In this document: positions 24,948-63,912 of the stretch, piece by piece
Layout of the letters: each line of letters begins with the position of its first letter
How positions within the stretch are numbered: position 1 is the first letter of the stretch
Source: an uncultured Prevotella sp.
GTDB taxonomy: Bacteria; Bacteroidota; Bacteroidia; Bacteroidales; Bacteroidaceae
DNA length: 64,000 nt
Assembly (NCBI GenBank): GCA_944319915.1
Contig: CALUEY010000035.1
Location: 1,163 to 65,162 of the forward strand
Reading direction: 5' to 3'
Position numbers and translations under genes: made by a program
Notes under the pieces: model-generated
The model's input: only the letters and a program-made list of their open reading frames with translations
The model's database searches: none
Told to the model about the DNA's origin: nothing

Positions 24948-25112
24948 GCAACCTCCTGGTTTACAATATGTTGCAGAACGGCCTCTTTCGCGTTGCCAAA
25001 CAGGCCGTCCGAGCTTGCCAAACGGCCTCTTTTGCAGTGCGAAAGAAGCCGTTTGGCATTTCAATTTCGAACACATAGCCTGCAAGCATCAACTTTGTAA
25101 GCTTATTGTCAC
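24948..25112 (+). repeat. Dispersed 22-bp-phased element, copy A
   Basis: 27-bp dyad 24948-24974; unit cores at 24976, 24998, 25020, 25042, (25064 degenerate); TGTAAGC at 25096. Confidence 0.85.
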
Positions 25113-25296
25113 GCTGTAAGAACCCACCTGCAAGCCTTGGCATTACATTGCATCATGGCACGCGTAAAACCATGAGGCAAGCCGCAAAAACGGGCTACTG
25201 GCCAACAAAACAATGTTAATCTGTGTAATCTGTTCTGAAGATAGGGAGATATTTTGTAATTTTGCAAATCAAACAGCATAACAACACATTACCAAC

Positions 25297-25899
25297 ATGA
25301 AAAAGATTATCATTGCAATAATGGCTTGCCTGCCATTCATGGGCATGGCACAGAACTCGTGGGAGACTGAAAACGAGCAGGGGCAGCAGGTAAACCCAGA
25401 CCAGAAGTACCTCGCCGGGGCAGTGCCTTTGGTAAACGGCAAGGTGCAGTTTTCCACTGAGATAAACGCTCCGGGCAAGTCGGCCGCTCAGATTTACGAC
25501 ATTATTCTCAAATACTTCACCCAGCTCACCAAGGAAGACAACCAGCTGGAACAAAGCCGCATCGACGCCAAAGACTCAATAGGGCACCAGATTTCGGCAT
25601 CTTACCAAGAGTGGCTCGTATTCAAGAACAAGCCTCTCGTGCTCGACCGCACACGCTTCATGTACACCCTCGTGGCACAGTGCCAGGACGGCAAGGCCAC
25701 AATAACGATGAGGCGCATATATTACCTTTACGACGAGGAGCGCAATCCGCAAACGTACATGGCCGAAGAATGGATTACCGATGAATACGGCCTTAAGAAG
25801 AACAAGCAGAAGCTGTCGCGCGTCAGCGGCAAGTTCCGCCGCAAGACAATTGACCGCAAGGACTACCTTTTCAACAAGATAGCAAGCCTGCTGAAGTAA
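25297..25899 (+). CDS. DUF4468-like exported protein
   Basis: Signal peptide ending GMA-Q; KYLAGAVP, AEEWITD motifs; TAATTTTG at 25257-25264. Confidence 0.75.
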   Translation: MKKIIIAIMACLPFMGMAQNSWETENEQGQQVNPDQKYLAGAVPLVNGKVQFSTEINAPGKSAAQIYDIILKYFTQLTKEDNQLEQSRIDAKDSIGHQISASYQEWLVFKNKPLVLDRTRFMYTLVAQCQDGKATITMRRIYYLYDEERNPQTYMAEEWITDEYGLKKNKQKLSRVSGKFRRKTIDRKDYLFNKIASLLK

Positions 25900-25963
25900 G
25901 CAGAGGCCACGCCACCAAAACGCAGAGGTGAAGCATGGTTTACAACCACCACTAACCGCCACA

Positions 25964-26206
25964 ATGACAATGGACGAGATAGACGAGATAGTGCAGAGGC
26001 AGCAAGCCGAAAGGCACCGCAGGCCAGACGTGAACAGGCTCAGAACGCAGCAATTGCGCAACGTGCTGAACATAATATTCATGGCAGTGGCCGTGGTCGG
26101 AGTGGGAATATACCTCAGCGGCAAGACCTTGGTGGGAACGTATGTGTTTTTGGCCTCGATGCCTTTCAAGCTCGTTGAAGTGGCCATCAGAATATTGAAA
26201 AGGTAA
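25964..26206 (+). CDS. Small hypothetical membrane protein (2 TM)
   Basis: LRNVLNIIFM...FKLVE; stop abuts start of next gene. Confidence 0.7.
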   Translation: MTMDEIDEIVQRQQAERHRRPDVNRLRTQQLRNVLNIIFMAVAVVGVGIYLSGKTLVGTYVFLASMPFKLVEVAIRILKR

Positions 26207-28561
26207 ATGAAGAGCATACTCATAACGTTGCTGTGCCTCACAGCCATGGCTGCAAAGGCCCAAGTGTACAACCAAATAGACGAAACAGGCCAAATAACGC
26301 AACGAAGCTCCGACGGAAGCAGCAACTTCAACAAGCACAGCAACGACACCACGAAAAACAAGGAGGTGCCAAAAGGCATATATGTATGGACGGTTGACCG
26401 CAGGTTCGGCGACATCACGCCTGCAGTGGTCGACACGCTCCAGCACCTCTACATGAACTCTATATTCAACACGGGGCTGCACGGAGAATTCAACACCACG
26501 GGCAACAACTACACAGCCCGCGAGAGCCGCATCGTCATCGACCGCCCGCTGCCGGCACAGTTCATGTTCACGCAGCCTTACAGCTACATCATTACGCAGC
26601 CCGACGAGCTGCACTTCACCAACACGCTCTCGCCAATCACCAACATATCTTACGACAACTGTGGGAACAAAACCAACGGTGAGGACCACATAGATGCAAA
26701 GTTCGCCGTAAATGCGGGCAAACGGCTCGGCTTCGGCTTCGACATCAACTACGCCTATGCCCGCGGATATTATGCCAACCAAAGCACGTCGCACCTTGGT
26801 GCCTCCTTGTGGGCTTCCTACCTCGGCGACCGCTACAATATGCACACCATATTCTCAACATACCACCAAAAGGTGGCCGAGAACGGCGGAATAACCGACG
26901 ACAATTACATAACTCACCCCGAAAGCTTCGACGATGCTTTCAGCGACGACGAAATTCCTACCGTTCTCAGCCAGAACTGGAACCGCAACAACAGTCTGCA
27001 CTTCTTCCTTACACACCGCTACAGCCTCGGTTTCTACCGCATGGAGAAACTTACCGAGGCGGAGCTTGAGGCACGACGCTTTGCGGCGCAAGCGCGCAAG
27101 GACAACGAGAAGAAAGAGAAAGAAGACGATGAGGAAGTGGCCGCCGCAGGACGGCCAGACAATGTCCGCGTGGCAGAAGAGGCTCCAACAGGACGCCCCG
27201 AAGGGGCAATCATCGCGGGCGACGAACCTACCGCAGGCGGCAAACTGGCCGTTGACACGACCCGAATAGACGTAGAGTCGGCCGAAAAGATGGACAGTCT
27301 GCTTGCAGCCAAACAACGCCAGGACTCCATCGATGCCACGATGAAGCGCGTGTTCGTACCCGTCACGAGCTTCATACATACGGTAGACATCAACCGCTAC
27401 GACCGCATCTACCAAGCATACGACTCACCCGAAAACTACTACGCCAACACTTACTATACCCACGACGAGAACATGGCATACGGAGGAGACTCCATCTACG
27501 ACCGCACCAAGCTCCTATCGGTCAAGAATACGCTGGCCATAGCTTTGCTCGAAGGTTTCAACAAATATGCCAAAGCCGGCCTCAAAGTGTTTGCAAGCCA
27601 CGAGCTGCGCAAGTTCGACATGCCGGAAGCATTCCAAGCCAACGGCTACTCGCTTACGCGCCTGGCCAGCTGGGCGGAGAACAACGTCAGCGTCGGAGGG
27701 CAGATAGTGAAGGCACAAGGCAAGACCCTGCACTACAACGCAACGGCCGAAGCATGGCTCGTGGGCGAAGATGCCGGGCAGCTGAAGGTTGACTTCAAGG
27801 CCGACGTAAACTTCCCGCTCTTCGGCGACACCGTGACCTTGGCCGCCAAGGCTTACTTCTACCGCCTCAACCCAACGTTCTACCAACGCCGCTACCACTC
27901 AAAGCACATCTGGTGGGACAATGACGACATGAGCAAGGAAACGCGAACACGCATAGAAGGACTCTTCACATACAGAAAGACAAAGACCAGCCTGCGCGTG
28001 GCCATCGAGGAAATACAGAACTACACTTACTTCTCAACGGCCTACGATGCCACTACCGATGGGCGTACCAATCTCTCGGCTGCCGTCAACCAAAATGGGG
28101 GGAACATAAACTTATTTACAGCACAGCTGCGTCAGGACTTCCGTCTCGGCATCCTCAATTGGGAGAACATCATAACTTACCAAAACTCAAGCAACCAGGA
28201 AGTGCTCCCCGTGCCGGCTCTGAACATCTTCACGAACCTGTACATAAAGTTCAAGATTGTGAAGCAGCTGTCGGTGGAGCTTGGCGCCGATGGTTATTTC
28301 TTCACGAATTACTTCGCTCCCGACTTCGTTCCGCAGCTCAACCAGTTTGCCGTGCAGACCAACAGTGCCAGCCGCGTGAAGCTGGGCGGCTATCCTTTCG
28401 TGGACGTTTACGCCAACCTGCACCTTAAGCGTACCCGCTTCTTCATCATGTACAGCCACGCAACGGCAGGCAACGGAAACAGTATGTACTTCCTTGCACC
28501 GCACTACCCGCAGAACGGAGCCACCATCCGCTTCGGGCTTTCGTGGAACTTCTTCAACTGA
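26207..28561 (+). CDS. Putative porin / outer-membrane beta-barrel (Porin_10-like)
   Basis: Signal peptide AKA-Q, amphipathic strands, terminal FGLSWNFFN. Confidence 0.8.
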   Translation: MKSILITLLCLTAMAAKAQVYNQIDETGQITQRSSDGSSNFNKHSNDTTKNKEVPKGIYVWTVDRRFGDITPAVVDTLQHLYMNSIFNTGLHGEFNTTGNNYTARESRIVIDRPLPAQFMFTQPYSYIITQPDELHFTNTLSPITNISYDNCGNKTNGEDHIDAKFAVNAGKRLGFGFDINYAYARGYYANQSTSHLGASLWASYLGDRYNMHTIFSTYHQKVAENGGITDDNYITHPESFDDAFSDDEIPTVLSQNWNRNNSLHFFLTHRYSLGFYRMEKLTEAELEARRFAAQARKDNEKKEKEDDEEVAAAGRPDNVRVAEEAPTGRPEGAIIAGDEPTAGGKLAVDTTRIDVESAEKMDSLLAAKQRQDSIDATMKRVFVPVTSFIHTVDINRYDRIYQAYDSPENYYANTYYTHDENMAYGGDSIYDRTKLLSVKNTLAIALLEGFNKYAKAGLKVFASHELRKFDMPEAFQANGYSLTRLASWAENNVSVGGQIVKAQGKTLHYNATAEAWLVGEDAGQLKVDFKADVNFPLFGDTVTLAAKAYFYRLNPTFYQRRYHSKHIWWDNDDMSKETRTRIEGLFTYRKTKTSLRVAIEEIQNYTYFSTAYDATTDGRTNLSAAVNQNGGNINLFTAQLRQDFRLGILNWENIITYQNSSNQEVLPVPALNIFTNLYIKFKIVKQLSVELGADGYFFTNYFAPDFVPQLNQFAVQTNSASRVKLGGYPFVDVYANLHLKRTRFFIMYSHATAGNGNSMYFLAPHYPQNGATIRFGLSWNFFN

Positions 28562-28581
28562 CAAGCACCGCCACCACGGCT

Positions 28582-29262
28582 TCACCTGCCGCAACGGGCA
28601 TACCACTCGCGGAGCAAACCGCGCGGTGTTCCGTCTTTCACCATGGCATCGAGCGCAGCGCGAGCCTCGCGCTTCTGCCCCATTGCAAGCAGCACATCAA
28701 CGCGCGATATCTTGAAATCAGAGTTGGCAGGTTCCAAGAGCATGGCTTTCTCCCAATCGTAGATGGCTGCGTGATAGTTACCAAGCTCCTTCTCAAGCGC
28801 AGCGCGGGCTGCATATGCAGTGGCACTGTCGGGGAAAAGTTCCACCGCACGGTTCATCTCATCCATGGCAAGGCCGTTACGCCCAAGCTTTAAGTACGTA
28901 TGGGCCAAGCCAAGACGGGCCTCCAAGTTCACCGGAGCTATCCTAAGGAACTCTTCATAGTCATTCCGGGCAAGCTCATAGCGGCGCAACTGGGTGTTAG
29001 CATAGGCACGGTAAAACAGAGCCGCAAGGTTCTGGGCATCCTTAGCAAGCACCGTTCCGCACTCCTCAACAGCATAATCCCATTGCCCCAGCTCCAAGTT
29101 CACTGCAACCTTGCGCAAGCGCAAGTCAACAGAATGGGGCGAAGCAGCAATCTGCCTGCCCAACACCGCCAAAGAGTCGCGCCACTGCTGGGCGGTTTGG
29201 GCATAGGCCTCACCGCCCAGCAGCAAGCCTGCGACAATGGCTAATGAATATATTGGTTTCAA
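28582..29262 (-). CDS. Exported TPR protein
   Basis: Signal peptide AYA-Q; tandem TPRs; overlaps leuB stop. Confidence 0.85.
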
Positions 29263-30326
29263 TTTTTGGCCTTGTTAATATAGTCAACTATCCATGCGCC
29301 AACCTCTTTGGTGCCATACTTGCCACCTCCTTCTACCTGTATCTCGGGTGTACGGACGTTGTCATCAAGCGAAGCGTCAACAGCTTGACGAATCAAAGCA
29401 CCCTCTTCCTTGAGATTGAAATGCTCAAACAGCATGGCGGCAGATAATATTTGTGCAAGCGGATTGGCGATGTTCTGCCCCTTGGCCTGCGGCCACGAGC
29501 CATGAACTGGCTCAAACACAGGGGTACTCTCGCCCGTGGAAGCCGACGGCAACAGCCCCATTGATCCCGAGATGCAGCTTCCCTCATCGGTAAGGATGTC
29601 TCCGAAGGTGTTCTCCGTCACCATCACATCAAAGAAAGTTGGCTCGGTTATCATGCGCATGGCAGCATTGTCCACATACATATAGTCAACCTTGACATCA
29701 GGATAGGACGGCTCCATCTCCTGGGCTATCTGCCTCCAGAGACGGCTTGAGGCCAGAACATTGGCCTTGTCTACAACAGTAAGGTGGCGGTTGCGCCTGC
29801 GAGCATACTCAAAGCCAACGCGCAGGATGCGCTCAACCTCCGGCCTTGTGTAGTAATTCGTGTCGTATGCCTTGTCGTTGTCCTGATATTTTTCCCCAAA
29901 ATACATTCCGCCGGTAAGCTCGCGAATGCAGATGAAGTCGGCCCCATCAACCAGCTCGGGCCGTAACGGCGACTTGTGCAGCAGGCACTTGAAGGTTTGC
30001 ACAGGCCTGATGTTGGCGTAGAGGCCGAGCTTCTTGCGCATTGCAAGCAAGCCTTGCTCAGGCCTTACCTTGGCCGTGGGGTCGTTGTCAAACCTCGTGT
30101 CGCCCACAGCCGCGAACAAAACAGCATCGGCTTCCTTGCAGATACGGTACGTCTCATCGGGAAACGGGTCGCCCACCTCGTCTATTGCATGAGCCCCACA
30201 AAGAGCCTCTTCATACTCTATCTCATGGCCGAATTTAGCGGCAATGGCATCCATCACGGCCACTCCCTGTTCCATAATCTCTGGCCCTATCCCATCACCA
30301 GGCAATACTGCGATTTTCAGTTTCAT
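29259..30326 (-). CDS. leuB: 3-isopropylmalate dehydrogenase
   Basis: [27 protein letters not shown]. Confidence 0.97.
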
Positions 30327-30337
30327 CGTATTATAGG

Positions 30338-31909
30338 TTATTGTTTGTTGTTTTCTTCAATTATATTAAGCATCTTGAATGTCGCCTTTATGGCCGCCTC
30401 AGTCTGGTCTGCGTCAAGTCCGCGTGTGCGAAGCAGCCTGTCACCATTCCGCCATGTTATCACTGTCTGCACAAGAGCGTCAGTGCGGCCTCCGGGAGGA
30501 ATCGTCACGGCATAGTTTTCAAGTGTAGGGAACGTTCGGCCAAGACTGTCGCGGTATATTCTGCGCAGTGCCTTGACAAACGCATCATACTGGCCGTCGC
30601 CGGTAGAGAAACCCTCGTACTCGCTGCCATTGATGCAAACCTTTATGCTCGCAAGCGGCTTCAATCCATATGATGAGGAAACCATGTAGCTTACGAGGCG
30701 CACCTTGTCCTCCGGGGCGGTGTGCTTCAGCACATCGCTGACGATGAACGGCAAATCCTCGGGAGTAACAATCTCCTTGCGGTCGCCCAACTCCGTGATG
30801 CGCCTCGTAACCCGCTGTGTCTGCTCAGGCGTCAGTTCCAACCCAAGCTCATGCAAGTTGCGGGCTATGTTTGCCTTGCCGCTGGTCTTCCCGAGCGCAT
30901 ACTCACGCTTACGTCCGAAACGTTCTGGCACAAGGTCATTGCAATAAAGGCCGGCCTTGTTGTCTCCGTCAGCGTGTACTCCAGCCACCTGGGTAAACAC
31001 ATTCTCCCCCACAATGGGTTGGTTTGGAGCCACCGCTATGCCCGAATAGCCCTCCACAAGGCGGCTTATGGCGTTAAGTTCGCTCTCGTTGATACTCGTC
31101 TTTGCGTGAAACTGGTCTTTCAGGATGACCTGCACACTCGAAAGTGGGGCATTTCCACATCGTTCGCCAAGTCCGTTCACCGTGACATGAATGCCTCTCG
31201 CGCCGCTGAGCACAGCCGCCAGCGAGTTGCTTACAGCCAAGTCGTAGTCGTTGTGGGCATGGAAATCGAAATGAGTGCCAGGATATCTCTTGCGCATCTT
31301 GCGGAAATACTCTATTACCTGCAGCGGATTCATGATGCCGAGAGTGTCGGGGAGCATGAACCTACTGATGCCGCTTGCACAGAGCGAGTCCATGAGTGCA
31401 TACACGTAGTCTGGCGAATCCTTCATGCCGTTACTCCAGTCTTCAAGATACAAGTTCACGGAAAACCCTTTGCTGAAAGCGTAGTCAACGGTTCGCAATA
31501 TGTCGCCAATATGCTCTGTAGGCGTCTTATGCAGCTGCCCGGCACAGTGCTTAAGCGACCCCTTGGCCAGCAAGTTTATTACCTTGCCGCCACAACCGTC
31601 TATCCAGTCAACCGACAAGCGCCCGTCAACAAACCCAAGTACCTCCACCCTCTCCAGCATTCCATTCTGGCGGGCATAACGGCAAATCATGGTCACAGCC
31701 TCCTTCTCGCCTTCCGACACTCGCGCCGAAGCCACCTCGATGCGGTCTACGTTTACATCCTTCAATAGCTTGCGGGCAATTACGAGTTTTTCGTGAGGCA
31801 GGAAGGACACTCCGCTGGTCTGTTCACCATCGCGGAGAGTGCTGTCCATGATTTCCACAAAAGGCTGTATCCGACTGTTTGAGTCGTTTACTTGTTGCGC
31901 CGTTCCCAT
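30338..31909 (-). CDS. cimA: Citramalate synthase (LeuA paralog)
   Basis: [30 protein letters not shown]; second DRE-TIM synthase in the leu operon. Confidence 0.8.
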
Positions 31910-36035: not shown

Positions 36036-36203
36036 GCGGTAACAAATGTTTACATAGAGGCCCCAATGATGCAATAAAGGCGATATGGCATTGCCAAACG
36101 TGCTGTTTCAGTCCTCAAAACAGCCCATATTGCAGGGCGAAACAGGCTGTTTGGCAACGCATTCTCGGCAGAATTGCAAAACTCCTGGCAATCAACAAGT
36201 TTG
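36036..36203 (-). repeat. Dispersed 22-bp-phased element, copy B
   Basis: GTTTACA 36048-36054; cores at 36074, 36096, 36118, 36140, (36162); 27-bp dyad 36177-36203. Confidence 0.85.
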
Positions 36204-36244
36204 CTAAATTTGATTTACGAGTAACGAATATTTACAGAACAGAC

Positions 36245-40045: not shown

Positions 40046-40439
40046 TACTTTTTTACTATTGTTTTTTTGTTTTATGTTTCTTCCTTCACTTCAATCAGCA
40101 ACAGGCCGACAAACAGCCCGCCGCCGCTTTAGTGGGCAAAATTACTAAATTTATGCCAATTGGCAACACATTTTGCGGAAAAAATACTCACAACCGCCTT
40201 TTATTGACCACTTTGAGAGCTGTCGGCCAAGATGCCTTTGATGCCGATAATGCCCGTTGGGCGATGCTTGCAAGGATTGGGAGCTTCTTGCAATGCACTC
40301 ACTTTGACAAAAGGAACGGAAAGCTTGGCGAGAACACTGCAAATGGGAGAAACAGCGGTATGAGGAAAGATAGAACCCCATCGGGAGCTTATCGTTTGTA
40401 AGAAATATTCAAATTCCATGATGGCTTTGACGTCAATGC

Positions 40440-40607
40440 ATAACACGCTGTGACACAATGAAATACAAAAGCGGCCGAACGATGTTGCAAAACGAGCCAA
40501 ACTGCAACTTGAAACAGGCCGTTTGATGCTGCAAAACGTGCCATCTTGCAACGCAAAATGGCAGGCATGGCAATTCCATACGCACTATTGTAAACAAAAG
40601 TTACCAC
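40440..40607 (+). repeat. Dispersed 22-bp-phased element, copy C
   Basis: 27-bp dyad 40440-40466; cores at 40468, 40490, 40512, 40534, 40556; TGTAAAC at 40589. Confidence 0.85.
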
Positions 40608-46013: not shown

Positions 46014-46180
46014 AGCTGAATTTGTTTACAACGGCACAACCCATTGCCCAACAACGGCCTTTCGGCTTTACAAAACAGGCTGTTTGGAACGGCTAAACGG
46101 CACTTTTGACAATGCGAAACGGCCCTTCCTGCAAGGCGGAAACACCGCCAAACACAAGCCCTTGAGCCTCAACGGCATAC
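46014..46180 (-). repeat. Dispersed 22-bp-phased element, copy D
   Basis: GTTTACA 46024-46030; cores at 46051, 46073, 46095, 46117, (46139); 27-bp dyad 46154-46180. Confidence 0.85.
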
Positions 46181-46429
46181 AAACTTGGCGCAAAGGATGG
46201 GGAAAGAGGTTTCAAGATGTAAAAAAACTTTTACAGTAAACGGGAGCCTTTACAGGTAGCATTGCCGCCATGGAGAGAGCCATGCTAAATAAAAAATGCC
46301 CTTAAACGGAGCAAACAACGAATCGAGAAACAATTTAAAACGACTCGCTGCAAGCATTTAACAAAAAAGATGTAAATTTGCAGACGATAGTCGCCAAGTT
46401 AAAAACAGAAAATAAAAAAACAACATAAA

Positions 46430-54316: not shown

Positions 54317-55864
<1,548 letters not shown>

Positions 55865-55880
55865 CGGCTGCACCGCGCAG

Positions 55881-55919: not shown

Positions 55920-55999
55920 TTTGCCCCTGCGCAGCACTTCGACACTGGCTGATTTTGTAAATATTTGCGCGGAATGGCCACCATTTTCGCAATGCACTT

Positions 56000-56167
56000 A
56001 CAACCACCTGGCACAGAGCCACTTGCCGCCAAGTCACGAACGGCGGTGCAAAACAGCCCGTTTCAGCCCGTCGAACAGCCTGTTTTGCTTTGCCAAACGG
56101 GCTGTTTGGCAAGTCCAAAAGGCAAGTGAGGCATCCGTGGATGCATAATGTAAACATTAATTATCAC
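56000..56167 (+). repeat. Dispersed 22-bp-phased element, copy E
   Basis: 27-bp dyad 56000-56026; cores at (56029), 56051, 56073, 56095, 56117; TGTAAAC at 56149. Confidence 0.85.
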
Positions 56168-56284: not shown

Positions 56285-57151
56285 ATGACACAAGCATACA
56301 TTCAAGAAAAGGCCTGCACGGCAAACCACTGCCACATAACCATGCTCGGCACGGGAGAGGCCACAGTCACCAAATGCTACAACACGTGCTTCGCCCTTTG
56401 CTCGCCAGGATGCACAATGCTCATAGATGCGGGCGGAGGCAATGGCATACTGGCGCAAATGGAGAGAGCGGGAATTGGCTTCGATGAACTCGACTGCCTG
56501 TTCGTGACCCATGCTCACACCGACCACATCCTTGGTGCCGTATGGGTGGTGAGGATGGTGATGCACTCCATCGCAGCAGGAAAGCGCGCCAGGGCTTTCG
56601 CCGTATACGGCCACGACCGCGCCTTGACCGTGCTCGATGCAATCTGCACCATGACGCTGCCTGCCACATACCGCAGCATGAGGGGAAAACAGATAATGTT
56701 GCGCGAAGTGACCGATGGGGAGCAGTTGATGTGTGGCGACATCAGCCTGACCTTTTTCGACATTTTTTCCACCAAAGAAAAACAGTTTGGCTTCTGCGCC
56801 AGCCTGCCCGGAGGCCTGCGGCTTGCCTGCCTCGGCGACGAGCCTTTCAACGAGCGCAACCGCGCCCTCGTGGAGAATGCCGACTGGCTACTATGCGAAG
56901 CCTTCTGCCTCGAGCGCGACAAGGATATATTCAAGCCCCACGAGAAACACCACAGCACAGCGCTTGAGGCCGGCATGGAGGCAAGCAAGCTAAACGCGGG
57001 CCACCTGCTGCTGTACCACATGGAGGACAGCAGCCTGGCCACACGCAAGAAAGATTATACAGAAGAGGCCGGGATGTTTTTCAAGGGCAAGATTGTCGTA
57101 CCCTACGACCTTGAGACTGTAAGCCTCGCCCCACCCTCGCAAAATGGCTGA
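56285..57151 (+). CDS. MBL-fold metallohydrolase (RNase Z-like)
   Basis: LGTG, IDAGGG, THAHTDH, HHST, LLYH. Confidence 0.88.
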   Translation: MTQAYIQEKACTANHCHITMLGTGEATVTKCYNTCFALCSPGCTMLIDAGGGNGILAQMERAGIGFDELDCLFVTHAHTDHILGAVWVVRMVMHSIAAGKRARAFAVYGHDRALTVLDAICTMTLPATYRSMRGKQIMLREVTDGEQLMCGDISLTFFDIFSTKEKQFGFCASLPGGLRLACLGDEPFNERNRALVENADWLLCEAFCLERDKDIFKPHEKHHSTALEAGMEASKLNAGHLLLYHMEDSSLATRKKDYTEEAGMFFKGKIVVPYDLETVSLAPPSQNG

Positions 57152-57170
57152 AAGACCCCGACCAGGCCTT

Positions 57171-58331
57171 TCAGCCACCGTATTCGTAATACCACCAGTA
57201 AGTTCCTGCATACTGCGGGCGCACCGCGTTCATGCGCGCCTCGCGCAAACTGTAAAGGCGCTCCAACCTCTGCAAGTCTTCATAGTCAGTGTCCATCACG
57301 TCGTTATGGTAAACTACAGTCGGATTGGCGCGCAGATGGGCGTATAGTATGAGTGCCTCGCGATAGTGAAGCGGCAGCCGGTCGTTTATCTCGTAATAAG
57401 TAGGCAGAGCCTTTGCAAACGCATCGATGTCGCGGTCGATGAGAAAGCCGCACAGAAGGTAGTCTTTGGCGGCATCCGATGCAAAACCGGAGCGCAGCAA
57501 GGCCTGAAGGTACAGACTGGCAGCCATGGGCCGCGCAGGCTTCGCGCCGAGGAAGCGATAAATGCTGTCGGTGGGATATATGAGGCACAACGTGCCTTCG
57601 GCCATTGGCACAAGGTCGGCCGACGTTCCCCTTACGGGGTACTTGAACAGCCTATCGCCAAGCTGCCCTTGGCGGGCAAGGGCATAGGCGCGAAGCATGG
57701 TAAGCCCCGCATCGGTCTCTTGCGACTTCTGGCCCACGGCTGCGGCACCGGCATGGTCGCCCCTAATGAGGCACGCCTCGGCCCGCATACGGTAATGCAT
57801 CACAGCATCGTTGTTGCCAACAAACCCCACAAAGAGGAACATTGCAGCCAAGGCAAAAAGGTTGCGCCAGGCCACAGCCGACGTAACAAGCAGCCCGGAG
57901 ACGCCAGAGGCGAAAGCGTCGGGCAGGCGCCGCAGCATGACGCAGGCCGCCACCCACAGCGCAAGGAGCAAAACAGCCACCCACCAAGCCATCCCCAGCC
58001 CTACGGTGCCGCCATCAGCAGGCTCCATGCTCGACAGTAGCGCAAGCAGCAGGGCCGACGGGAAATAGGTAAGTGCGTGGAAACTGCCCCCAAAAGGCCA
58101 TATCGACGACACGCCGAACTGGAGGAGCTGAAGCACGGCTGTTAATATCACAGCTCCAATCAAGCCATTGTATGTCGTGGCCCCGCCGCTCAGTATGTGC
58201 TGGGCTACGGCAAGCATATCAGCCTGATAGAAGTATAGGTAAACGAAAATGAACCCACAAAAAAGGATAGCACATGCCGTCTTGAGGACTGATGTGCTAC
58301 CCATCTTGCCGCTATAATCGTTGTAATTCAT
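57171..58331 (-). CDS. Membrane protein, DUF6057-like
   Basis: N-terminal TMs plus helical C-domain with LPLHYREAL and terminal TYWWYY. Confidence 0.65.
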   Translation of the reverse strand: MNYNDYSGKMGSTSVLKTACAILFCGFIFVYLYFYQADMLAVAQHILSGGATTYNGLIGAVILTAVLQLLQFGVSSIWPFGGSFHALTYFPSALLLALLSSMEPADGGTVGLGMAWWVAVLLLALWVAACVMLRRLPDAFASGVSGLLVTSAVAWRNLFALAAMFLFVGFVGNNDAVMHYRMRAEACLIRGDHAGAAAVGQKSQETDAGLTMLRAYALARQGQLGDRLFKYPVRGTSADLVPMAEGTLCLIYPTDSIYRFLGAKPARPMAASLYLQALLRSGFASDAAKDYLLCGFLIDRDIDAFAKALPTYYEINDRLPLHYREALILYAHLRANPTVVYHNDVMDTDYEDLQRLERLYSLREARMNAVRPQYAGTYWWYYEYGG

Positions 58332-58400
58332 CCTTAATTCTCTACATACGTAACTCAAAAACAATGCCGATGGCTTGCCTCGACGGCAAGCCACGGCACA

Positions 58401-60476
58401 TCATATCTTGCGCAGCACCACAGCGGAGCGCGCCGGGATGTACAGCTTGAGCCACTCCTTGTGGTCTTCCACATACAGAGGGTCAAAGTTTGTGACGTGT
58501 GTCATGCTGTCATCGGCAAAGCCGTTGCCGCCGAACTGCCTCGAATCTGTATTGAGAACCACCTCGTAAGCACCTGTAGGCACAAGGAAACCATAGTCCG
58601 TATACGAGCGCGTGGGGCTGAAGTTGAACACAAACACCAGATCGCCACGGCTGAAAGCCAGCACTTGGTCGCCATCGTTGTGCCAAACTTCCTGCAAAGG
58701 CAGAGCCTGGAAGTTCTTCACGCTCTTCATCACTTTCAGCATCTCGCGGTCAAAGTCTCCAAGGTAGTGATAGTCAAGCTCCTTGTTGTCCACGAGGTTC
58801 CACTGCCTACGGGCGTACTTGTAGCTCCAACCATTTCCCTCACGGGGAAAGTCTATCCATTCCGGATGGCCGAACTCATTGCCCATGAAGTTGAGATAGC
58901 CGCCGTTAATGGCCGCCGCCGTCACAAGGCGAATCATCTTGTGCAAGGCAATGCCTCGGTTAACGGCCCCATTCTCGTCGCCAATCTTGAAGTGCCAGTA
59001 CATATCCGCATCAATAAGGCGGAAGATGATGGTCTTATCCCCTACCAATGCCTGGTCGTGACTCTCGCAATAGCTTATGGTCTTCTCGTCGGGCCTGCGG
59101 TTCTTCACCTCCCAGAATATCGAGCTGGGCTTCCAGTCCTCATCCTTCAACTCCTTGATTGTCTTTATCCAGAAGTCGGGTATGTTCATGGCCATTCGGT
59201 AATCGAAGCCATAGCCACCGTCCTCGAACTTGGCCGCCAAGCCCGGCATACCGCTCACTTCCTCGGCAATGGTGATTGCATTGGGATTTACTTCGTGAAT
59301 CAGCTTGTTGGCCAAAGTAAGGTAGCAGATGGCGTTGTCGTCCTCATGCCCGTTGAAATAGTCGCCGTAATTGCAGAAAGCCTCACCCAGACCGTGGCTG
59401 TAATAGAGCATGGAAGTAACTCCGTCGAAGCGGAAGCCATCGAAGTGATACTCCTCCAGCCAATATTTGCAGTTTGAAAGCAGGAAGTGGAGCACTTCGT
59501 CCTTGCCGTAATCAAAGCACAGGCTGTCCCATGCCGGGTGCTCATGGCGCTCGCCCGGATAGAAGAACTGGTTTGGGTCGCCGGCAAGGTTGCCCAAGCC
59601 CTCTACCTCGTTCTTCACAGCGTGAGAGTGAACGATGTCCATTATGACGGCTATGCCGTTCCTATGGGCAGTGTCGATGAGTTCCTTCAGCTCCTCGGGA
59701 GTGCCGAACCTGCTTGATGGGGCGAAGAAAGAACTCACATGATAGCCAAACGATCCGTAGTAAGGATGCTCCTGAATTGCCATAACTTGTATGCAGTTGT
59801 AGCCGTCGGCCTTGACGCGCGGCAGCACGTTCTCCTGGAACTCGCGGTACGTTCCCACCTTTTCCGCATCCTGAGCCATGCCCACGTGGCACTCATAGAT
59901 AAGCAAAGGAGAGCGGTCGGCCTTGAATCTCTTGCGCTTGAACACGTATGGCTTCTCCGGGTTCCACACCTGTGCGGAGAATATCTTCGTGCTGTCATCT
60001 TGCACAACGCGCTGGCACCAGGCCGGGATCCGTTCGCCCTCGCCGCCGTTCCACTTCACCTTCATCTTGTAAAGGTCGCCGTGCTTGATAGCTTTCTCGC
60101 TGAGCTTAAGTTCCCAGTTGCCCGTTCCCTCGATGCGCTTGAGCTTGAACCTCGGCGTTTCCTTCCAGTCGTTGAAGTCGCCTATGAGGTAAATCTCGGT
60201 GGCATTGGGCGCCCACTCTCGGAACACCCAGCCCTTTGCGAGCTTATGAAGGCCGAAGTAGAGATGGCCGCTGGCAAAGTCTGACAGGGTGCGCTTGCCC
60301 CCGGCAGTGAGCTGCCCCATCTTCCACAGGGCATGGTCGTGCCTGCCACGTATGGCCTCCTCGTAAGGCTCAAGCCATGGGTCGTTTCTTACCAGCCCGA
60401 TATGGGCAGGAGCTTTCGCTTCCGGGGCGGCCTCGGCAGTTTTCCTTTTCCGCCCTACAGTCTTCTTTTCTGCCAT
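58401..60476 (-). CDS. glgB: 1,4-alpha-glucan branching enzyme (GH13)
   Basis: FREWAPNA, IYECHVG, DGFRFDGVTSM, AEEVSG, ESHDQ, FMGNEFGHPEW. Confidence 0.95.
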   Translation of the reverse strand: MAEKKTVGRKRKTAEAAPEAKAPAHIGLVRNDPWLEPYEEAIRGRHDHALWKMGQLTAGGKRTLSDFASGHLYFGLHKLAKGWVFREWAPNATEIYLIGDFNDWKETPRFKLKRIEGTGNWELKLSEKAIKHGDLYKMKVKWNGGEGERIPAWCQRVVQDDSTKIFSAQVWNPEKPYVFKRKRFKADRSPLLIYECHVGMAQDAEKVGTYREFQENVLPRVKADGYNCIQVMAIQEHPYYGSFGYHVSSFFAPSSRFGTPEELKELIDTAHRNGIAVIMDIVHSHAVKNEVEGLGNLAGDPNQFFYPGERHEHPAWDSLCFDYGKDEVLHFLLSNCKYWLEEYHFDGFRFDGVTSMLYYSHGLGEAFCNYGDYFNGHEDDNAICYLTLANKLIHEVNPNAITIAEEVSGMPGLAAKFEDGGYGFDYRMAMNIPDFWIKTIKELKDEDWKPSSIFWEVKNRRPDEKTISYCESHDQALVGDKTIIFRLIDADMYWHFKIGDENGAVNRGIALHKMIRLVTAAAINGGYLNFMGNEFGHPEWIDFPREGNGWSYKYARRQWNLVDNKELDYHYLGDFDREMLKVMKSVKNFQALPLQEVWHNDGDQVLAFSRGDLVFVFNFSPTRSYTDYGFLVPTGAYEVVLNTDSRQFGGNGFADDSMTHVTNFDPLYVEDHKEWLKLYIPARSAVVLRKI

Positions 60477-60482
60477 AGTACG

Positions 60483-60929
60483 TCAAGCCAAAACCTTGAA
60501 TATAGCCTTCTTTATCTCAGCCTCTCCCGAGATGCAGGGAGCGTGGCCGTCCTGCGGGAAGAAGATTGCGAACATTCCCGGCTGGCATGTTACGTAGCTG
60601 TCGGCAGCAAGCCCCGGAAGCTTCGTGATGTCCTTCTTCTCGTCATACTCGCCTTCGGGCAAGTTGCACAGCGGGGTGTAGCCGTATGTCTCGGCGCAGG
60701 AAAGCGGTATCTGTATGTCAATCATCTTCTTGTGGGTTTCGAGCACGGCTTCATCTGGTGTCTTGCCCTTGGCCGTGGTTATGTTTACGAACAGCTCGTC
60801 GCCCTTTATCAGGTGCTTTCCCGGTTCGAGCTTTGCCAGGTCGTTGGCCTTTATGAATTCCACAACGTCGTCAAACAAAGGGTTGAGCCCTTTGTAGAAA
60901 GCAAGCTTGTCAAGTGTGTCTATTACCAT
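60483..60929 (-). CDS. YhcH/YjgK/YiaL-family protein
   Basis: ETHKKMIDIQ, FAIFFPQDGHAP. Confidence 0.9.
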   Translation of the reverse strand: MVIDTLDKLAFYKGLNPLFDDVVEFIKANDLAKLEPGKHLIKGDELFVNITTAKGKTPDEAVLETHKKMIDIQIPLSCAETYGYTPLCNLPEGEYDEKKDITKLPGLAADSYVTCQPGMFAIFFPQDGHAPCISGEAEIKKAIFKVLA

Positions 60930-60982
60930 AACTAATAATATTTAAGTTAAACATGTGCATGTTCAATTGCATCGGGCAGCTG

Positions 60983-62092
60983 TCAGTCCAAGCGTTTTTG
61001 GCCACGGATGTACACCCCCTGAGCCGTTATGTTGCCGTCGCGGTCTTTTTCCACGAAGCGCCCGTCGCGTACATCGTCGAGGTAAGAGCCTTCAAAGCGG
61101 TTACCGTCCTTGTCCTCCTCTATGGCCGGGCCGTTGCGCTTGCCATCCTTGAAAGTTCCCTTGAACTTCCAGCCATCGGCATAGCGCACGATGCCCTCGC
61201 CGTCAATCTTTCCGTTCTTGAACTGCCCTTCAAACACATCGCCGACCTTAGTGGTCAGCTTTCCGGCACCGCTGGGTGTGTCGGCTTTCCATTCGCCCAC
61301 GTATACATTGCCGTTTTTCCACACGAGAGTGCCTCGCCCTTGCTTGGCTCCCTCATAAAACTGGCCCGTGTACTTATCTCCGTTGGCATACTTGAATATG
61401 CCCACGCCCGTGCGCTCGCCGTTAACGTAGTCTCCTTCGTAAACATCGCCGTTCTTGAACCGATAGATTCCCTTTCCGTTCTGGATGTCGTCCTTCCATT
61501 CGCCGGTGTAAACATCTCCGTCGGCATACTTAAAAGTACCCCGGCCCGAGCGTTGGTTGTCCTTCCATTCGCCATCGTAGGTGGAGCCGTCGCCCCAGTC
61601 GAAGAAGCCCTTGCCGTTCTTCTTGTCGCCGAGCCACTCCCCCTTGTAATACGCCCCGCTGGCAAATGTGTATGTGCCGCGGCCGTTTCTGTGATCCTGG
61701 AACCATTCGCCATCATACTTGTCGCCGTTGTAGTAGTACATCACGCCGTGGCCTTGCTGGTAATCGCGGAACCACAGCCCAACATACTTGTTGTTGTTGG
61801 CAAAATAATACGTACCCCTGCCATGCTGCTGGTCTTGAAACCACTGGCCCTCATACTTCTCCCCGTCGAAGAAAGTGTACACTCCGTATCCCTGGCGCTT
61901 GCCCTTCACGTAGGAGCCTTCATACCTGTTCCCGTTCTTGTAGACGGTTTTCCCCTTGCCGTGGGGCTTGCCTCCGGCCATCTCGCCGTTGTACTGCCCC
62001 CCATCCTTGGTCTGGCACGTTCCCAGCGAAATCCTTTGGGCGCAGGCCATCAACGGCAGGGCGACAAGCAAAGATAATATAATATGTCTCAA
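60983..62092 (-). CDS. Exported MORN-repeat protein (start uncertain, TTG 62092)
   Basis: About 14 tandem 23-aa YxGxWxxxxxxGxGxxxxxxGxx repeats; signal peptide ACA-Q; TACTTTTG at 62117-62124. Confidence 0.88.
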   Translation of the reverse strand: MRHIILSLLVALPLMACAQRISLGTCQTKDGGQYNGEMAGGKPHGKGKTVYKNGNRYEGSYVKGKRQGYGVYTFFDGEKYEGQWFQDQQHGRGTYYFANNNKYVGLWFRDYQQGHGVMYYYNGDKYDGEWFQDHRNGRGTYTFASGAYYKGEWLGDKKNGKGFFDWGDGSTYDGEWKDNQRSGRGTFKYADGDVYTGEWKDDIQNGKGIYRFKNGDVYEGDYVNGERTGVGIFKYANGDKYTGQFYEGAKQGRGTLVWKNGNVYVGEWKADTPSGAGKLTTKVGDVFEGQFKNGKIDGEGIVRYADGWKFKGTFKDGKRNGPAIEEDKDGNRFEGSYLDDVRDGRFVEKDRDGNITAQGVYIRGQKRLD

Positions 62093-62258
62093 AATGTGTC
62101 TGCTTAAAATTATTGCCAAAAGTAATAAAAAAAACGCAGGTGTCAAAAAAGATTAGTTTTTTTAACTGATTGTCAATCCATTATTTTATACCTTTGCACT
62201 GCTGAGGGGTATACGGCCAGTCCGACCGCCCCTCGCCACATACCATATCATATAGCTT

Positions 62259-63017
62259 ATGAAATTCATCGGAATAATTCCTGCGCGCTATTCCTCATCG
62301 CGCTTTCCCGGGAAGCCCCTTGCCATGCTCGGCGGAAAGCCCGTGATACAGCGCGTTTACGAACAGGCAGCATCGGTGCTCGACAGTGTTTGCGTGGCCA
62401 CCGACGACGAGCGTATACGCAAGGCTGTGGAAAACTTCGGCGGCCACGCCGTAATGACATCGGCCAACCACCGCAGCGGAACCGACCGCATACGCGAGGC
62501 CGCAGAGCTTACCGGCACAGACTGCGACGTGATTATAAACATACAGGGCGACGAGCCGTTTGTTGCGCCTACTCAGATAAAGGCAGTGTGCGACTGCTTC
62601 GCCGACCCCGCTACACAGATTGCCACGCTAGGCATACCGTTCGGAGCCGACGCCAAGGCCATAGCCAACCCCAACTCGCCCAAGATAGTGGTCGACACCA
62701 ACGGCTACGCCATGTATTTCAGCCGCAGCGTCATCCCCTACGTAAGGGGCAAGGAGGCGTCAGAGTGGCCCGGGGCATTCCCTTTCCTTAAGCACATAGG
62801 GCTATACGGATACCGCCACAAGGTGCTCATGCAGGTCACAAACCTGCCGCCAAGCCCGCTCGAAGTGGCCGAGAGCCTGGAGCAACTGCGTTGGCTGCAA
62901 AACGGATACAAGATAAAGGTGGCACTCACAGACATTGAGACCATTGGCATCGACACGCCTGAAGACCTCGCGCGGGCCGAAGCTTTCCTCGCCAAGACGG
63001 GCAACAAAACGGCATAA
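62259..63017 (+). CDS. kdsB: CMP-Kdo synthetase
   Basis: IIPARYSSSRFPGKPL, NIQGDEP, HIGLYGY, ESLEQLR; TACCTTTG at 62189-62196. Confidence 0.97.
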   Translation: MKFIGIIPARYSSSRFPGKPLAMLGGKPVIQRVYEQAASVLDSVCVATDDERIRKAVENFGGHAVMTSANHRSGTDRIREAAELTGTDCDVIINIQGDEPFVAPTQIKAVCDCFADPATQIATLGIPFGADAKAIANPNSPKIVVDTNGYAMYFSRSVIPYVRGKEASEWPGAFPFLKHIGLYGYRHKVLMQVTNLPPSPLEVAESLEQLRWLQNGYKIKVALTDIETIGIDTPEDLARAEAFLAKTGNKTA

Positions 63018-63022
63018 GGAGC

Positions 63023-63718
63023 ATGGGGGCCAATAGGTTTGACTTCAAGCAGTTCGCGGTGCGCCAGGAGCGGTGTGCCATGAAGGTTGGCACCGACGCC
63101 ACCCTCCTCGGGGCGTGGGCGCGTGTGCCGGCTGCTTGCGCCCACCAGCCTACTATACTCGACATAGGCACAGGCACAGGCATCATAGCGCTCATGATGG
63201 CTCAACGCTTCCCTGAGGCAACGCTAACGGCAATCGACATAGAGCCCGACGCCGCAGCCCAAGCTGCCGACAACGCCGCCGCATCGCCTTACACAGGGCG
63301 CATCAATGTGGCCTGCATACCGGTGCAGCAGTACGATGGAGGGCCGTTTGCCGCCATAGTGTGCAACCCACCCTACTTCGCAGGCTCGCTCCATAGCCCC
63401 GACCGCAAGCGCACACTCTGCCGCCACACAGCCTCGCTCACATACACCGAGCTGGCAAGCCATGCCTACCGGCTGCTGAGGGCCGACGGCGAATTCTCTG
63501 TCATCATACCTACCAGCCAAGCGTCAATGATGGACGAAGCAAGGGCCTTAGCCGGCTTCTTCGAGGTTAGGCGCTGCCTCGTCAGGACAAAGCCCGAAGC
63601 ACAGCCAAAGCGCATGATGCTGGCCTACGCCAAAGCCCCGCAGCCCGCCCACGAAACTGAAGAACTGACACTGGGAGACGCAAGGCACAAGATGATGACG
63701 GCCGACTTCTACCTCTGA
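63023..63718 (+). CDS. tRNA1(Val) A37 N6-methyltransferase (YfiC/TrmN6-like)
   Basis: FKQF, MKVGTD, LDIGTGTG, NPPYF. Confidence 0.9.
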   Translation: MGANRFDFKQFAVRQERCAMKVGTDATLLGAWARVPAACAHQPTILDIGTGTGIIALMMAQRFPEATLTAIDIEPDAAAQAADNAAASPYTGRINVACIPVQQYDGGPFAAIVCNPPYFAGSLHSPDRKRTLCRHTASLTYTELASHAYRLLRADGEFSVIIPTSQASMMDEARALAGFFEVRRCLVRTKPEAQPKRMMLAYAKAPQPAHETEELTLGDARHKMMTADFYL

Positions 63719-63746
63719 GCGGCATCGCCGCAACCACCTCACAAGC

Positions 63747-63912
63747 TTGACAATTTCTTTACACGCACCAGCTCGGCAGGCACCATGCACCGTTTTGCGC
63801 CACAATACAGGCCGTTTCACACTCCCAAACGCACCGTTTCGCAACGCTAAACGGCAGGTTTTGCACCGCAAAACGGCGCACACCCGTATCCAACTATAAA
63901 TCAGCCATTTAC
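63747..63912 (-). repeat. Dispersed 22-bp-phased element, copy F
   Basis: CTTTACA 63757-63763; cores at 63783, 63805, 63827, 63849, 63871; 27-bp dyad 63886-63912. Confidence 0.85.

Follow-up and report, generated by a model that had tools for sequence, protein, structure and literature searches.

The genome of this uncultured Prevotella carries about 210 intergenic loci of a repeat element, far more than chance would give, and the family is homologous to PINSR, a repeat described in the Prevotella intermedia group. The parts of the element are spaced at quantised distances, it lacks strand bias, its key bases are conserved in place between species and its copies exclude one another at short range. 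From its sequence organisation we propose that the element is a domesticated site at which DNA is bent and wrapped to help fold the chromosome, a reading to which we assign slightly less than an even chance.

Results

Six copies lie in the window, the 64-kb stretch of DNA that was analysed. They occupy the coordinates and strands given in a preliminary description of this DNA, and the gaps between the end of the dyad and the end motif are 121, 122, 122, 123, 122 and 122 bp, exactly as reported there. The length of ~165 bp that it assigned to the element was too short: a TGTAA-type left box is also found 34-56 bp before the dyad in 6/6 window copies (weakly in copy 1), which extends the element to ~195-220 bp in all six. 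The copies and their parts are as follows.

Copy 1, 24915..25110, + strand, between uvrB and a DUF4468 gene: left box 24915-24929 (weak), dyad 24948-24974, 11-bp phased array ~24975-25059, right box 25096-25110
Copy 2, 36040..36236, - strand, upstream of the leuA operon: left box 36236-36222, dyad 36203-36177, array ~36176-36091, right box 36054-36040
Copy 3, 40397..40603, + strand, upstream of a SurA-like gene: left box 40397-40411 (one helical turn further out), dyad 40440-40466, array ~40467-40551, right box 40589-40603
Copy 4, 46016..46235, - strand, between a phosphodiesterase-family gene and secA: left box 46235-46221 (two turns further out), dyad 46180-46154, array ~46153-46068, right box 46030-46016
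Copy 5, 55956..56163, + strand, between dnaB and a metallo-beta-lactamase-fold gene: left box 55956-55970, dyad 56000-56026, array ~56027-56112, right box 56149-56163
Copy 6, 63749..63956, - strand, downstream of a methyltransferase gene: left box 63956-63942, dyad 63912-63886, array ~63885-63800, right box 63763-63749

The array had been described as five units; units 2-4 score well in 6/6 copies, but unit 1 and unit 5 are each positive in only 2/6. At gathering score, Rfam matched two tRNAs and nothing else in the window. No element was present at the dnaB loci of 14 other genomes of the genus, the position held here by copy 5.

Scanning the 2.63-Mb genome with a profile built from the six copies returned 229 unique loci; 215 of these pass E<1e-3 and 206 pass E<1e-5, while the reversed genome gave 2 matches below 1e-3. 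A matrix for the dyad alone matched 253 times, compared with 15 in one block-shuffled genome. (A covariance-model search scored 19 candidates per genome and was unusable for copy counts.) The three outcomes that would have spoken against a selected cis-acting site, namely broadly distributed spacing, equally good matches in shuffled sequence and identity with a described IS or MITE, were not seen in searches that left out ISfinder. Full-length identity in the major class averages 53% and reaches at most 74% (n=55); the best local pair shares 89% over 135 bp. A second subfamily of 19 copies has the same core and another pair of boxes.

None of 184 cores overlapped a gene predicted by our home-made gene caller by more than 30%. 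Orientation relative to genes is split 38 to 45, and the element is found at 27% of divergent and 16% of convergent junctions, so that there is neither a strand bias nor a preference for 3' ends or convergent junctions. Orientation agreed with the local GC skew in 60/121 elements, a test of replichore polarity that is uninformative in this draft genome because genes also split 598/1171. No gene family is enriched beside the elements, the largest group being five neighbours from one 19-member paralog cluster; a sigma-70 promoter scan is ill-suited to the phylum of the host genome.

The distances in the window are exact, but the 'fixed geometry' of the preliminary description gives way across the genome to spacers that are quantised and shift in ~11-bp steps. 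The right box starts at offset 147-149 in 113/130 cases, the remainder being mostly at 125, 136-138, 158-159 and 169, and the left box at -33 to -35 in 87/133 and -44 to -46 in 36/133. Non-modal box-to-box distances (n=42) give a resultant of 0.82 at a period of 11.0 compared with 0.54 at 10.0. The two boxes occur together or not at all (both, neither or one: 118/44/11/11, p=9e-22); in this genome they are quasi-palindromic and directly oriented, and span ~196 bp from box start to box end in the major class. Each 22-bp unit is itself two-fold symmetric, with fillers that are free to vary, and the A/T period of the array is therefore 11.0 bp. The dyad stands at the exact offset in 113/119 elements that were ascertained without it. 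No TGTAA boxes were seen by eye in 24 copies viewed from four other genomes.

Comparison with an 84%-identical genome (G506) points to selection at each locus. In 37 ortholog pairs the key bases of the dyad are 97% identical and its free bases 49%, with spacers at 49-50% and four-fold codon sites at 72.5%; orientation is kept in 36/37 pairs. Single copies are nevertheless readily lost, since up to 21/59 of the G506 sites in synteny have no copy here. Ten of these 21 empty sites were aligned and, among the alignments listed, all are ragged deletions, several with remnants. The element also behaves as duplex DNA: RNAalifold predicted 0 pairs and no consensus fold, Watson-Crick complementarity at the free dyad positions is 0.21-0.26 against an independent expectation of 0.26-0.27, no antidiagonal covariation was found in 179 cores, and gene-orientation bias is absent. 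The earlier suggestion of a selected cis-acting site rather than a recently spread MITE thus holds up, given the lack of near-identical full-length copies, target duplications and RNA covariation, the exact placing of the dyad, and the key bases and positions kept between species.

Copies avoid one another over a few kilobases. Under three stratified nulls 13-20 pairs closer than 2 kb and 19-27 pairs at 2-4 kb were expected; 0 and 3 were observed, giving 3 pairs below 4 kb in total against 32-47 expected, and the observed/expected ratio is near 1 from 4 kb on. Below 8 kb there are 30 pairs in the same orientation and 22 in opposite orientation, and direct pairs are not depleted at short range. 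The exclusion radius varies between genomes. The second chromosomes of P. intermedia have no deficit below 4 kb (16/56 and 18/61 gaps, with 19 and 23 expected) and are short of gaps only below 2 kb; in another genome (G418) 3/11 gaps are below 4 kb.

The preliminary description knew of no comparator with such an architecture; PINSR (PMC4755523) proved to be a homologous family. The text of that 2016 paper describes a 188-bp repeat of the P. intermedia group with ~180 intergenic copies whose positions are largely conserved between strains; it confines the repeat to four species and offers no internal anatomy, spacing rule or function. We judged homology to the PINSR consensus indirectly, through loci that match the PINSR primers, and these loci hit the profile of this genome at E 4e-14 to 2e-20. 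P. falsenii is PCR-positive for PINSR in the same paper, and its loci found with a primer-derived pattern have 4-6/30 mismatches to the forward and 1-2/18 to the reverse primer, a product of 150 vs 149 bp, and matches to our profile at E 4e-14 to 1e-16. A copy in another genome (G471) has 2 mismatches to PINSR-F and 0 to PINSR-R. Searches with the forward primer only gave 0 matches at <=3 mismatches in this genome, PINSR-F likewise gave 0 at <=3 mismatches in a 401-genome family sample, and an exact scan of named genomes with 25 bases of it also gave 0; a relaxed two-part pattern returned 5 Prevotella loci and 1 chance match.

PINSR and the element described here share the left box, the 27-bp dyad and the unit offsets (46, 68, 90), and the 206-215 intergenic, non-coding copies agree with the ~180 of PINSR. 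They differ in the right box, which is direct and ~6 bp further out in this genome and inverted in PINSR-type copies, 14/16 of which measure 186 bp from TGT to ACA with inverted boxes. Fillers differ too, as does identity among copies (53% here vs 77-85% in PINSR). Orthologs of the PINSR type are no closer than paralogs (0.82-0.84 vs 0.80-0.87), and gene conversion seems to homogenise the copies of that lineage (n=2 pairs). Judged by its sequence, the element is a diverged PINSR relative. P. aurantiaca, which is not among the PCR-positive species listed in PMC4755523, carries it as well. Fillers are lineage-specific, and the geometry pattern had no match in 171/250 genomes of the genus and at least 10 matches in 17/250. 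As carriers are also interleaved with non-carriers, the function of the element would be either dispensable or met by other variants.

The dyad has the consensus GCAAC-nnn-YTG-N5-CAR-nnn-GTTGC (an example is at 56000-56026), which matches the IHF core CAR-N4-TTR twice, in inverted and overlapping register. The full IHF consensus is WATCARNNNNTTR (PMC8421141). Across 368 half-sites the core positions are occupied at C 0.96, A 0.99, R 0.99, T 0.94, T 1.00 and R 0.95; the WAT part is not conserved in the dyads of this GC-rich genome, with A there at 0.18. The 9 bp between the two near-invariant TG/CA steps of the dyad would correspond to the 9 bp that separate the two kinks made by IHF (10.1101/382655). 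The preliminary description was right that the window encodes no cognate protein, but a candidate is found elsewhere in the genome, where a single IHF-like gene has IHF as its top PDB matches. Its product has an Arg equivalent to R46 of IHF-beta, which is named as one of its specificity residues (10.1101/057489); it lacks the equivalents of E44 and R42, and Ile replaces the intercalating Pro. The symmetry of the dyad fits a homodimer, which would read TTR on both arms, and an IHF-type protein probably binds there. The IHF-like gene is present in 34/34 genomes tested whether or not they have the repeat, so it does not account for the patchy distribution of the latter, and repeat carriers are interleaved with non-carriers in a short IHF tree.

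HU-HIG was considered as a binder and rejected: the sole clear HU-HIG gene has only a very weak upstream match (E 0.6-0.7), and an insensitive tblastn search with the protein found nothing in 43 array loci.

Searches of the literature, with subscription journals largely outside their scope, returned nothing on PINSR beyond the original description (PMC4755523), and PINSR and BrickBuilt as the relevant Prevotella intergenic repeats or MITEs. The element was not found in work on the Prevotella nucleoid and IHF or on IHF binding sites in Bacteroidetes, and the open-access part of the same literature was not found to describe the double IHF match, the 11.0-bp period, the ~11-bp spacer steps or the mutual avoidance.

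Discussion

The element is conserved base by base at each locus, and we propose that it serves there as an architectural site. In this mechanism the 27-bp dyad would be kinked by a homodimeric IHF-like protein, and the 11-bp-phased A/T array next to it would form one arm by curving or wrapping. A further protein would likely clamp both end boxes, so that a supercoil loop would be pinned every 5-12 kb. Simulations in which IHF pins the apices of plectonemes (PMC9519438) describe a behaviour of this kind. Wrapping of the array and clamping of the boxes seem to us about evenly balanced between right and wrong, and a role in chromosome folding falls just below that mark. The initial spread of the family must have been by copying.

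That copying might have been transposition. The element could be a non-autonomous mini-transposon of the Mu/Tn7/IS21 type, with the TGT...ACA boxes as its ends, target immunity having spaced its insertions until saturation; the IHF site and phased array would then pair two ends 190 bp apart in register and, in the strongest form of this explanation, the host would keep copies as beacons that confer immunity to a cognate transposon or to a transposable phage. PINSR-type copies end in imperfect inverted repeats (9-11/14 bases in 16/16 copies), so a transposon origin is conceivable, and the pairing of the boxes, with a second pair around the same core in the 19-copy subfamily, suits it, as do lineage-specific fillers, which would reflect copying or conversion at the level of the lineage. 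The exclusion profile also fits Mu-type target immunity: cis-immunity in Mu is strong within ~2 kb, with a sharp rise near 5 kb and bulk reached at ~7 kb (PMC7350765), and Tn7 ends are arrays of 22-bp sites that confer immunity (PMC9308760). With both kinds of end the element shares a 22-bp period, short-range exclusion of neighbours and, in the PINSR form, TG...CA-type termini. The units of the element are, however, symmetric with variable fillers, unlike head-to-tail TnsB sites; its boxes are direct in this genome; and neither 118 copies here nor 16 of the PINSR type have an excess of same-copy direct repeats of 3-9 bp, although these may have decayed with age. There are no near-identical full-length copies, and the aligned empty sites (10) are ragged deletions among those listed. 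No partner transposase was found: rve and IS66 transposases were not found in this genome (89.8% complete), and the sole IS21 (IstB in 1/5 genomes) has unrelated ends. Immunity at the time of insertion could not by itself explain later selection in place, and we consider the mini-transposon unlikely, although it is the leading alternative.

The element may alternatively be a tag for transfer of self-DNA by uptake, packaging or mobilisation, maintained by molecular drive like the Neisseria DUS; fragments with one copy would be favoured in transfer, a second copy per fragment adding nothing. Its intergenic position, lack of strand bias, lineage-specific spelling and short-range exclusion are what such a tag would show, as is the finding that PINSR-type orthologs are no closer than paralogs. 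According to PMC4755523, PINSR is missing from most strain-specific mobile regions; DUS, too, are lacking in recently acquired genes and are spaced at the size of conversion fragments (PMC2397512). DUS and the USS of Pasteurellaceae are likewise species-branded and conserved in place. They are 10-30 bp long and often lie within genes, whereas the element is 130-200 bp long and strictly intergenic, as the 184 cores attest, and with three kinds of site it is far above the complexity of a tag. One copy compared by blastn with 72,556 plasmids and 50,697 phages gave no match, a search of low sensitivity for so diverged a family. We regard a transfer tag as distinctly unlikely.

A strong site for gyrase or another type II topoisomerase, like the Mu SGS or BIME-2, with the array wrapping the C-terminal domain of GyrA, is more doubtful again. 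Dyad and array together cover ~130 bp with AT/GC alternation at 11.0 bp, close to the 130-bp, 10.75-bp gyrase motif (PMC6379681), and an E. coli gyrase matrix scores 7.7 for elements against 6.7 for their own shuffles (n=179, p=3e-9). The gain is ~1 bit, and the scores are far below the 16 of a known strong site, that of pSC101; just 7/179 elements score beyond the 99.99th percentile of the genome, and their predicted centres are scattered at 11-bp intervals. The dyad axis falls on a base pair, where a 4-bp staggered cut should need an axis between pairs, and the junction counts have no 3'-end or convergent bias.

Least credible, and already disfavoured, is a REP-like hairpin in RNA or single-stranded DNA (terminator, mRNA stabiliser or HUH-transposase substrate), for although the units are palindromic, single copies are able to fold, fillers occur in both orientations in several species and 8 loci have sub-threshold Rfam matches to unrelated eukaryotic miRNA hairpins (taken as chance), there is no consensus fold, covariation, strand preference, Rfam family at gathering score or GTAG tag in the consensus, and the 3.2-kb locus of the only Y1 transposase match, a weak one, contains no element.

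A Xer site (cer, psi or dif) consists of two 11-bp recombinase arms around a 6-8-bp centre and is present once or a few times per genome. IHF spacing fits the odd-centred dyad better than this layout does, and an active recombination core is hard to reconcile with ~210 copies lying in both orientations.

Returning to the architectural site, the closest parallels in E. coli are BIME-1/RIB and BIME-2, which according to PMC3333891, PMC6379681 and PMC6907758 also have hundreds of intergenic copies, lineage-specific sequence and modular mosaic units. BIME-1 includes an IHF site within a composite repeat, and roles in topology and as domain barriers are proposed for these repeats. Unlike BIMEs, the element has no GTAG-tagged REP hairpins, covariation, 3'-end placement or adjacent TnpA-REP, and its IHF-like site is symmetric and followed by the 11-bp phased array. 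BrickBuilt of Porphyromonas gingivalis (PMC4596501) resembles it in being an intergenic repeat of the Bacteroidales with tandem 22-23 bp units and flanking modules. BrickBuilt, however, is present in 19 copies of 1-23 direct 23-nt units each, bounded by IS5-type terminal repeats and in some cases by target duplications, in contrast to ~210 copies, a near-fixed count of symmetric units, a dyad and no duplications in the element.

We suggest, tentatively and as a possibility that falls well short of the likely, that the chromosomes of several Prevotella lineages encode in their sequence a grid of 200-300 nucleoprotein sites, which lie at least a few kilobases apart and consist of three parts: a symmetric IHF bend, an 11-bp phased arm and paired clamp boxes. 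Such a grid would set the positions of supercoiled loops chromosome-wide or, if the sites are domesticated transposon ends, would blanket the chromosome with immunity against a Mu/Tn7-like invader; in the latter case it would represent a new kind of defence against transposable elements. PINSR gains an anatomy and a candidate protein, the range of the family now extends beyond the four species reported for it, and the Bacteroidales IHF-like host factor acquires a candidate consensus site. The identity of topological barriers in bacteria is not established, according to PMC6907758. About 200 mapped, selected and mutually excluding sites per genome, with a phase rule, offer a handle on how loops and barriers are positioned.

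Results

All six element copies named in the preliminary description were found in the window, and their dyad-to-end-motif distances proved exact on re-measurement. The window contig (C35) includes the housekeeping genes lon, uvrB, the leu operon, secA and dnaB; just upstream of lon lie two tandem tRNA genes (window 5667-5739 and 5767-5839) of equal Rfam score. A profile of the six copies detected 229 loci, 206 of them at E<1e-5, in the Prevotella sp. draft genome G000 (2.63 Mb, 45 contigs, 56.8% G+C, 89.8% complete), and 2 matches below 1e-3 in a reversed-genome control. The anatomy, drawn from 102 full-length copies and position matrices, has four parts:

Part 1: left 15-bp box, starting TGTAA
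Part 2: 27-bp dyad, GCAAC-nnn-YTG-N5-CAR-nnn-GTTGC
Part 3: array of symmetric 22-bp units, A-tracts and T-tracts alternating every 11.0 bp
Part 4: right TGTAA box, direct orientation

The extent first proposed, running from dyad through array to end motif, missed the left box; of the five units counted there, the middle three (2-4) are strong, with units 1 and 5 partial. In G000 an in-phase array accompanies 184 of 253 dyad matches; both boxes are present in 118 of these 184 elements, one in 22 and neither in 44. Subfamily B, with 19 copies in G000, keeps the core but has end boxes of its own: TTAACA-N6-TGTTAA on the left and, on the right, TTGCA-N4-TGCAA at offset 161-162 (18/19 at 160-162).

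Subfamily B examples in G000 (contig:position): C2:3990, C3:139755, C3:157728, C4:144454

Identity among some of its copies reaches 77-80% over 250 bp, which makes them younger than the main class. In the left box of subfamily B, the right half may resemble a XerD-binding arm of dif but has no central region. TGTAA boxes occur in at least two of six copies in the comparison genome G506, and the 24 copies inspected by eye in four others (G453, G459, G467, G575) show dyad and array only. The dyad with its array therefore forms the core of the element, to which boxes were added at the level of lineages.

In none of the 184 element cores does overlap with a predicted gene exceed 30% (home-made caller, 1945 genes in G000). 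The share of junctions that bear an element is 27% for divergent, 16% for convergent and 7% for tandem ones; in tandem junctions 38 elements are oriented with the genes and 45 against them.

The near-constant dyad-to-end-motif distance originally described holds for the six window copies; genome-wide the spacing is instead quantised in steps of about 11 bp. The right box starts at offset 147-149 in 113 of 130 boxed copies and otherwise mostly at 125, 136-138, 158-159 or 169, while the left box lies at -33 to -35 in 87/133 and at -44 to -46 in 36/133. Box-to-box distances cluster at 159, 170, 181, 193, 204 and 215, and the 42 non-modal distances give circular resultants of 0.54, 0.71, 0.82 and 0.84 for periods of 10.0, 10.5, 11.0 and 11.5, respectively. 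Unit slippage does not account for the 11-bp step on the left because the left spacer is non-repetitive and near random among copies (35% identity vs 27% expected). As an ascertainment control, 119 elements were picked by array and right box alone; the dyad stood at exactly -46 or -47 in 113 of them, and its key bases matched 6/6 in 98, compared with 0/119 in each of three shifted controls.

The preliminary description knew of no comparator with this architecture, a view that is not supported: PINSR, which occupies intergenic sites in P. intermedia (188 bp long; 177 copies in one strain and 184 in another; PMC4755523), is homologous by shared dyad, unit phase and profile matches. It is described there as without terminal repeats and of unknown function; our comparison rests on its primers and copy coordinates. 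A primer-derived pattern retrieved three P. falsenii loci, two P. aurantiaca loci and one unrelated chance locus. The five Prevotella loci have a primer span of 150 bp (149 in PMC4755523), the same dyad as in G000 and units that keep its phase (at offsets 46 and 90 for 5/5 loci and at 68 for 2/5), and they match the G000 profile at E 4e-14 to 2e-20. Unlike the G000 element, PINSR-type copies end in an inverted box (9-11 of 14 bases inverted); 14 of 16 are 186 bp long, one 164 and one 208. The PINSR forward primer has no match in G000 at up to 3 mismatches, so the G000 element is a PINSR variant, not PINSR as defined. BrickBuilt (PMC4596501) is set apart by its unit, its ends and the number of its copies. 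The family is already known as PINSR, from one paper; the literature searched, mostly outside subscription journals, yielded no account of its parts and phase rule, of an exclusion zone or selection in place, or of the wider range and the direct-box and subfamily B variants.

The geometry pattern, allowing up to 2 mismatches, matched 83 times in G000. Among 250 genomes of the genus, 79 had at least one match, 17 at least ten (up to 250 and 241) and 171 none, with 0-1 matches in reversed-pattern controls for the 17 rich genomes; among 200 genomes of the family, nine had 1-2 matches, which is background level. Zero matches do not equal absence, since the zero-match genome G436 carries arrays without the dyad. 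Such 22-bp A/T-phased arrays occur in this close relative (loci L191-L194, G436:C7) and in other genera (L032-L034, L041-L043), so that the array module reaches further than the complete element. Across carriers the dyad and A/T phase stay constant, with 7-bp fillers that are specific to each species. Carriers and non-carriers interleave in an IHF tree of 91 columns with few well-supported branches.

G506 (788 kb compared, 84% identity to G000) has 92 elements: 59 with syntenic flanks in G000, where the partner is present in 38 cases and absent in 21, and 33 unmappable. At least one of the 21 'empty' sites is occupied after all (C33:76514, by dyad scan). In the reverse comparison, 38 of 42 mappable G000 elements are present in G506. 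Across 37 ortholog pairs, orientation is kept in 36 and spacer class in most; identity is 97% at key and 49% at free dyad bases, 74% in A/T tracts, 52% in fillers and 49-50% in spacers, and four-fold codon sites of the two genomes are 72.5% identical. Ten of the empty sites, as far as aligned, are ragged deletions, with remnants in several. We found no target duplication at elements and no young clusters among G000 copies. In the PINSR lineage, both of two syntenic sites are common to genomes G418 and G471. There (L178-L185) orthologous copies resemble each other no more closely than paralogs do, and the 7-bp fillers comprise few words in both orientations and differ between orthologs, which suggests homogenisation by modular gene conversion at fixed positions.

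Gaps among 213 G000 loci average 11.0 kb with a CV of 0.55, against 0.87-0.91 for random spacers (0/1000 permutations). Set against three nulls that take junction type and G+C as strata, pair counts reveal a hard core: below 2 kb the count is 0 against 13-20 in the nulls, at 2-4 kb it is 3 against 19-27, and from 4 kb on the observed/null ratio is about 1. C9:21747 and C9:22427, 680 bp apart in a shared spacer and counted once in these statistics, are the sole loci pair below 1 kb and an exception to the exclusion. Gaps below 4 kb number 8/85 in G506 (32 under an exponential) and, by the coordinates in PMC4755523, 6/119 and 7/121 on the PINSR first chromosomes (about 29 and 32 under an exponential null cruder than the spacer null). 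On the denser second chromosomes depletion is seen only below 2 kb, and G418 has 3/11 gaps below 4 kb; the exclusion radius therefore decreases as density rises. Short-range pairs in G000 are direct in 30 cases and inverted in 22; direct pairs are not rarer, which speaks against neighbours being lost through recombination with each other. Two otherwise dense genomes have element-free stretches, of ~114 kb (L185-L190, G471:C2 ~507-620 kb) and ~75 kb (L141-L143, G506:C2 ~51-127 kb), possibly mobile regions such as the PINSR paper describes.

The element has no consensus fold and no covariation, and so acts as duplex DNA. Both dyad halves match the IHF core CAR-N4-TTR (0.94-1.0) and not the WAT part of the consensus given in PMC8421141. 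IHF is described as kinking DNA twice, 9 bp apart, with TTR clamped on the flank (10.1101/382655, PMC5829579); we infer a likeness to this spacing in the TG and CA steps of the dyad, which bracket 9 bp. One of three HU-fold genes in G000 is IHF-like by PDB search, its product keeping the R46-equivalent arginine without E44, R42 and proline equivalents. As the gene is single-copy, its product is expected to be a homodimer, whose target would be symmetric. Both G000 and G506 have an element upstream of the gene, a weak sign because many spacers bear one. In the comparisons made, HU-HIG proteins gained no support as binders of this element. Of the 41 G000 tRNA genes, 5 (3 Met, 2 Leu) are followed 7-15 bp downstream by a lone dyad:

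tRNA-adjoining lone dyads in G000: C5:13494, C11:5709, C14:10330, C19:15521, C45 near 1669

These are possibly host-factor sites at integration hot spots; a Bacteroides protein of the IHF-like clade is reported as host factor for CTnDOT integration (PMC5499826). A box-less element (C15:13591-13810) stands close to a tyrosine integrase gene (C15:13809-14168, minus), ~100-200 bp from its 3' part; the other 7 integrase matches in G000 have no element within 8 kb. Near a contig end in G506 (L201, G506:C6:1-3172), an element lies ~850 bp from a weak, below cut-off rve-type integrase match, with a second lone dyad on its far side.

Discussion

The spacing could reflect a mini-transposon held apart by target immunity, for which Mu cis-immunity of similar range (PMC7350765) and the 22-bp sites reported in Tn7 ends (PMC9308760) offer parallels; the searches made yielded no target duplications, young copies or partner transposase, and we consider it rather unlikely, although such an origin may account for the elements and their spacing, with the host accounting for retention. 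A transfer tag under molecular drive, of the kind discussed in PMC2397512, is quite unlikely. A gyrase site is more doubtful still: elements score 7.7 vs 6.7 for their shuffles with the E. coli matrix (PMC6379681, Table DS10), with no single centre under it. An RNA or REP-like hairpin (compare PMC3333891) is very improbable, and the remaining probability falls to roles outside these readings.

We tentatively favour a model in which a bend, a curved or wrapped arm and a box clamp together would pin a loop. An IHF-type bend is predicted at the dyad, and simulations in PMC9519438 place IHF at plectoneme apices. The 11-bp array would form a right-handed curved or wrapped arm, its handedness suggested by a period above 10.5, and the paired boxes would be clamped. 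With a loop pinned in this way, a second site within a few kb would be redundant or interfering.
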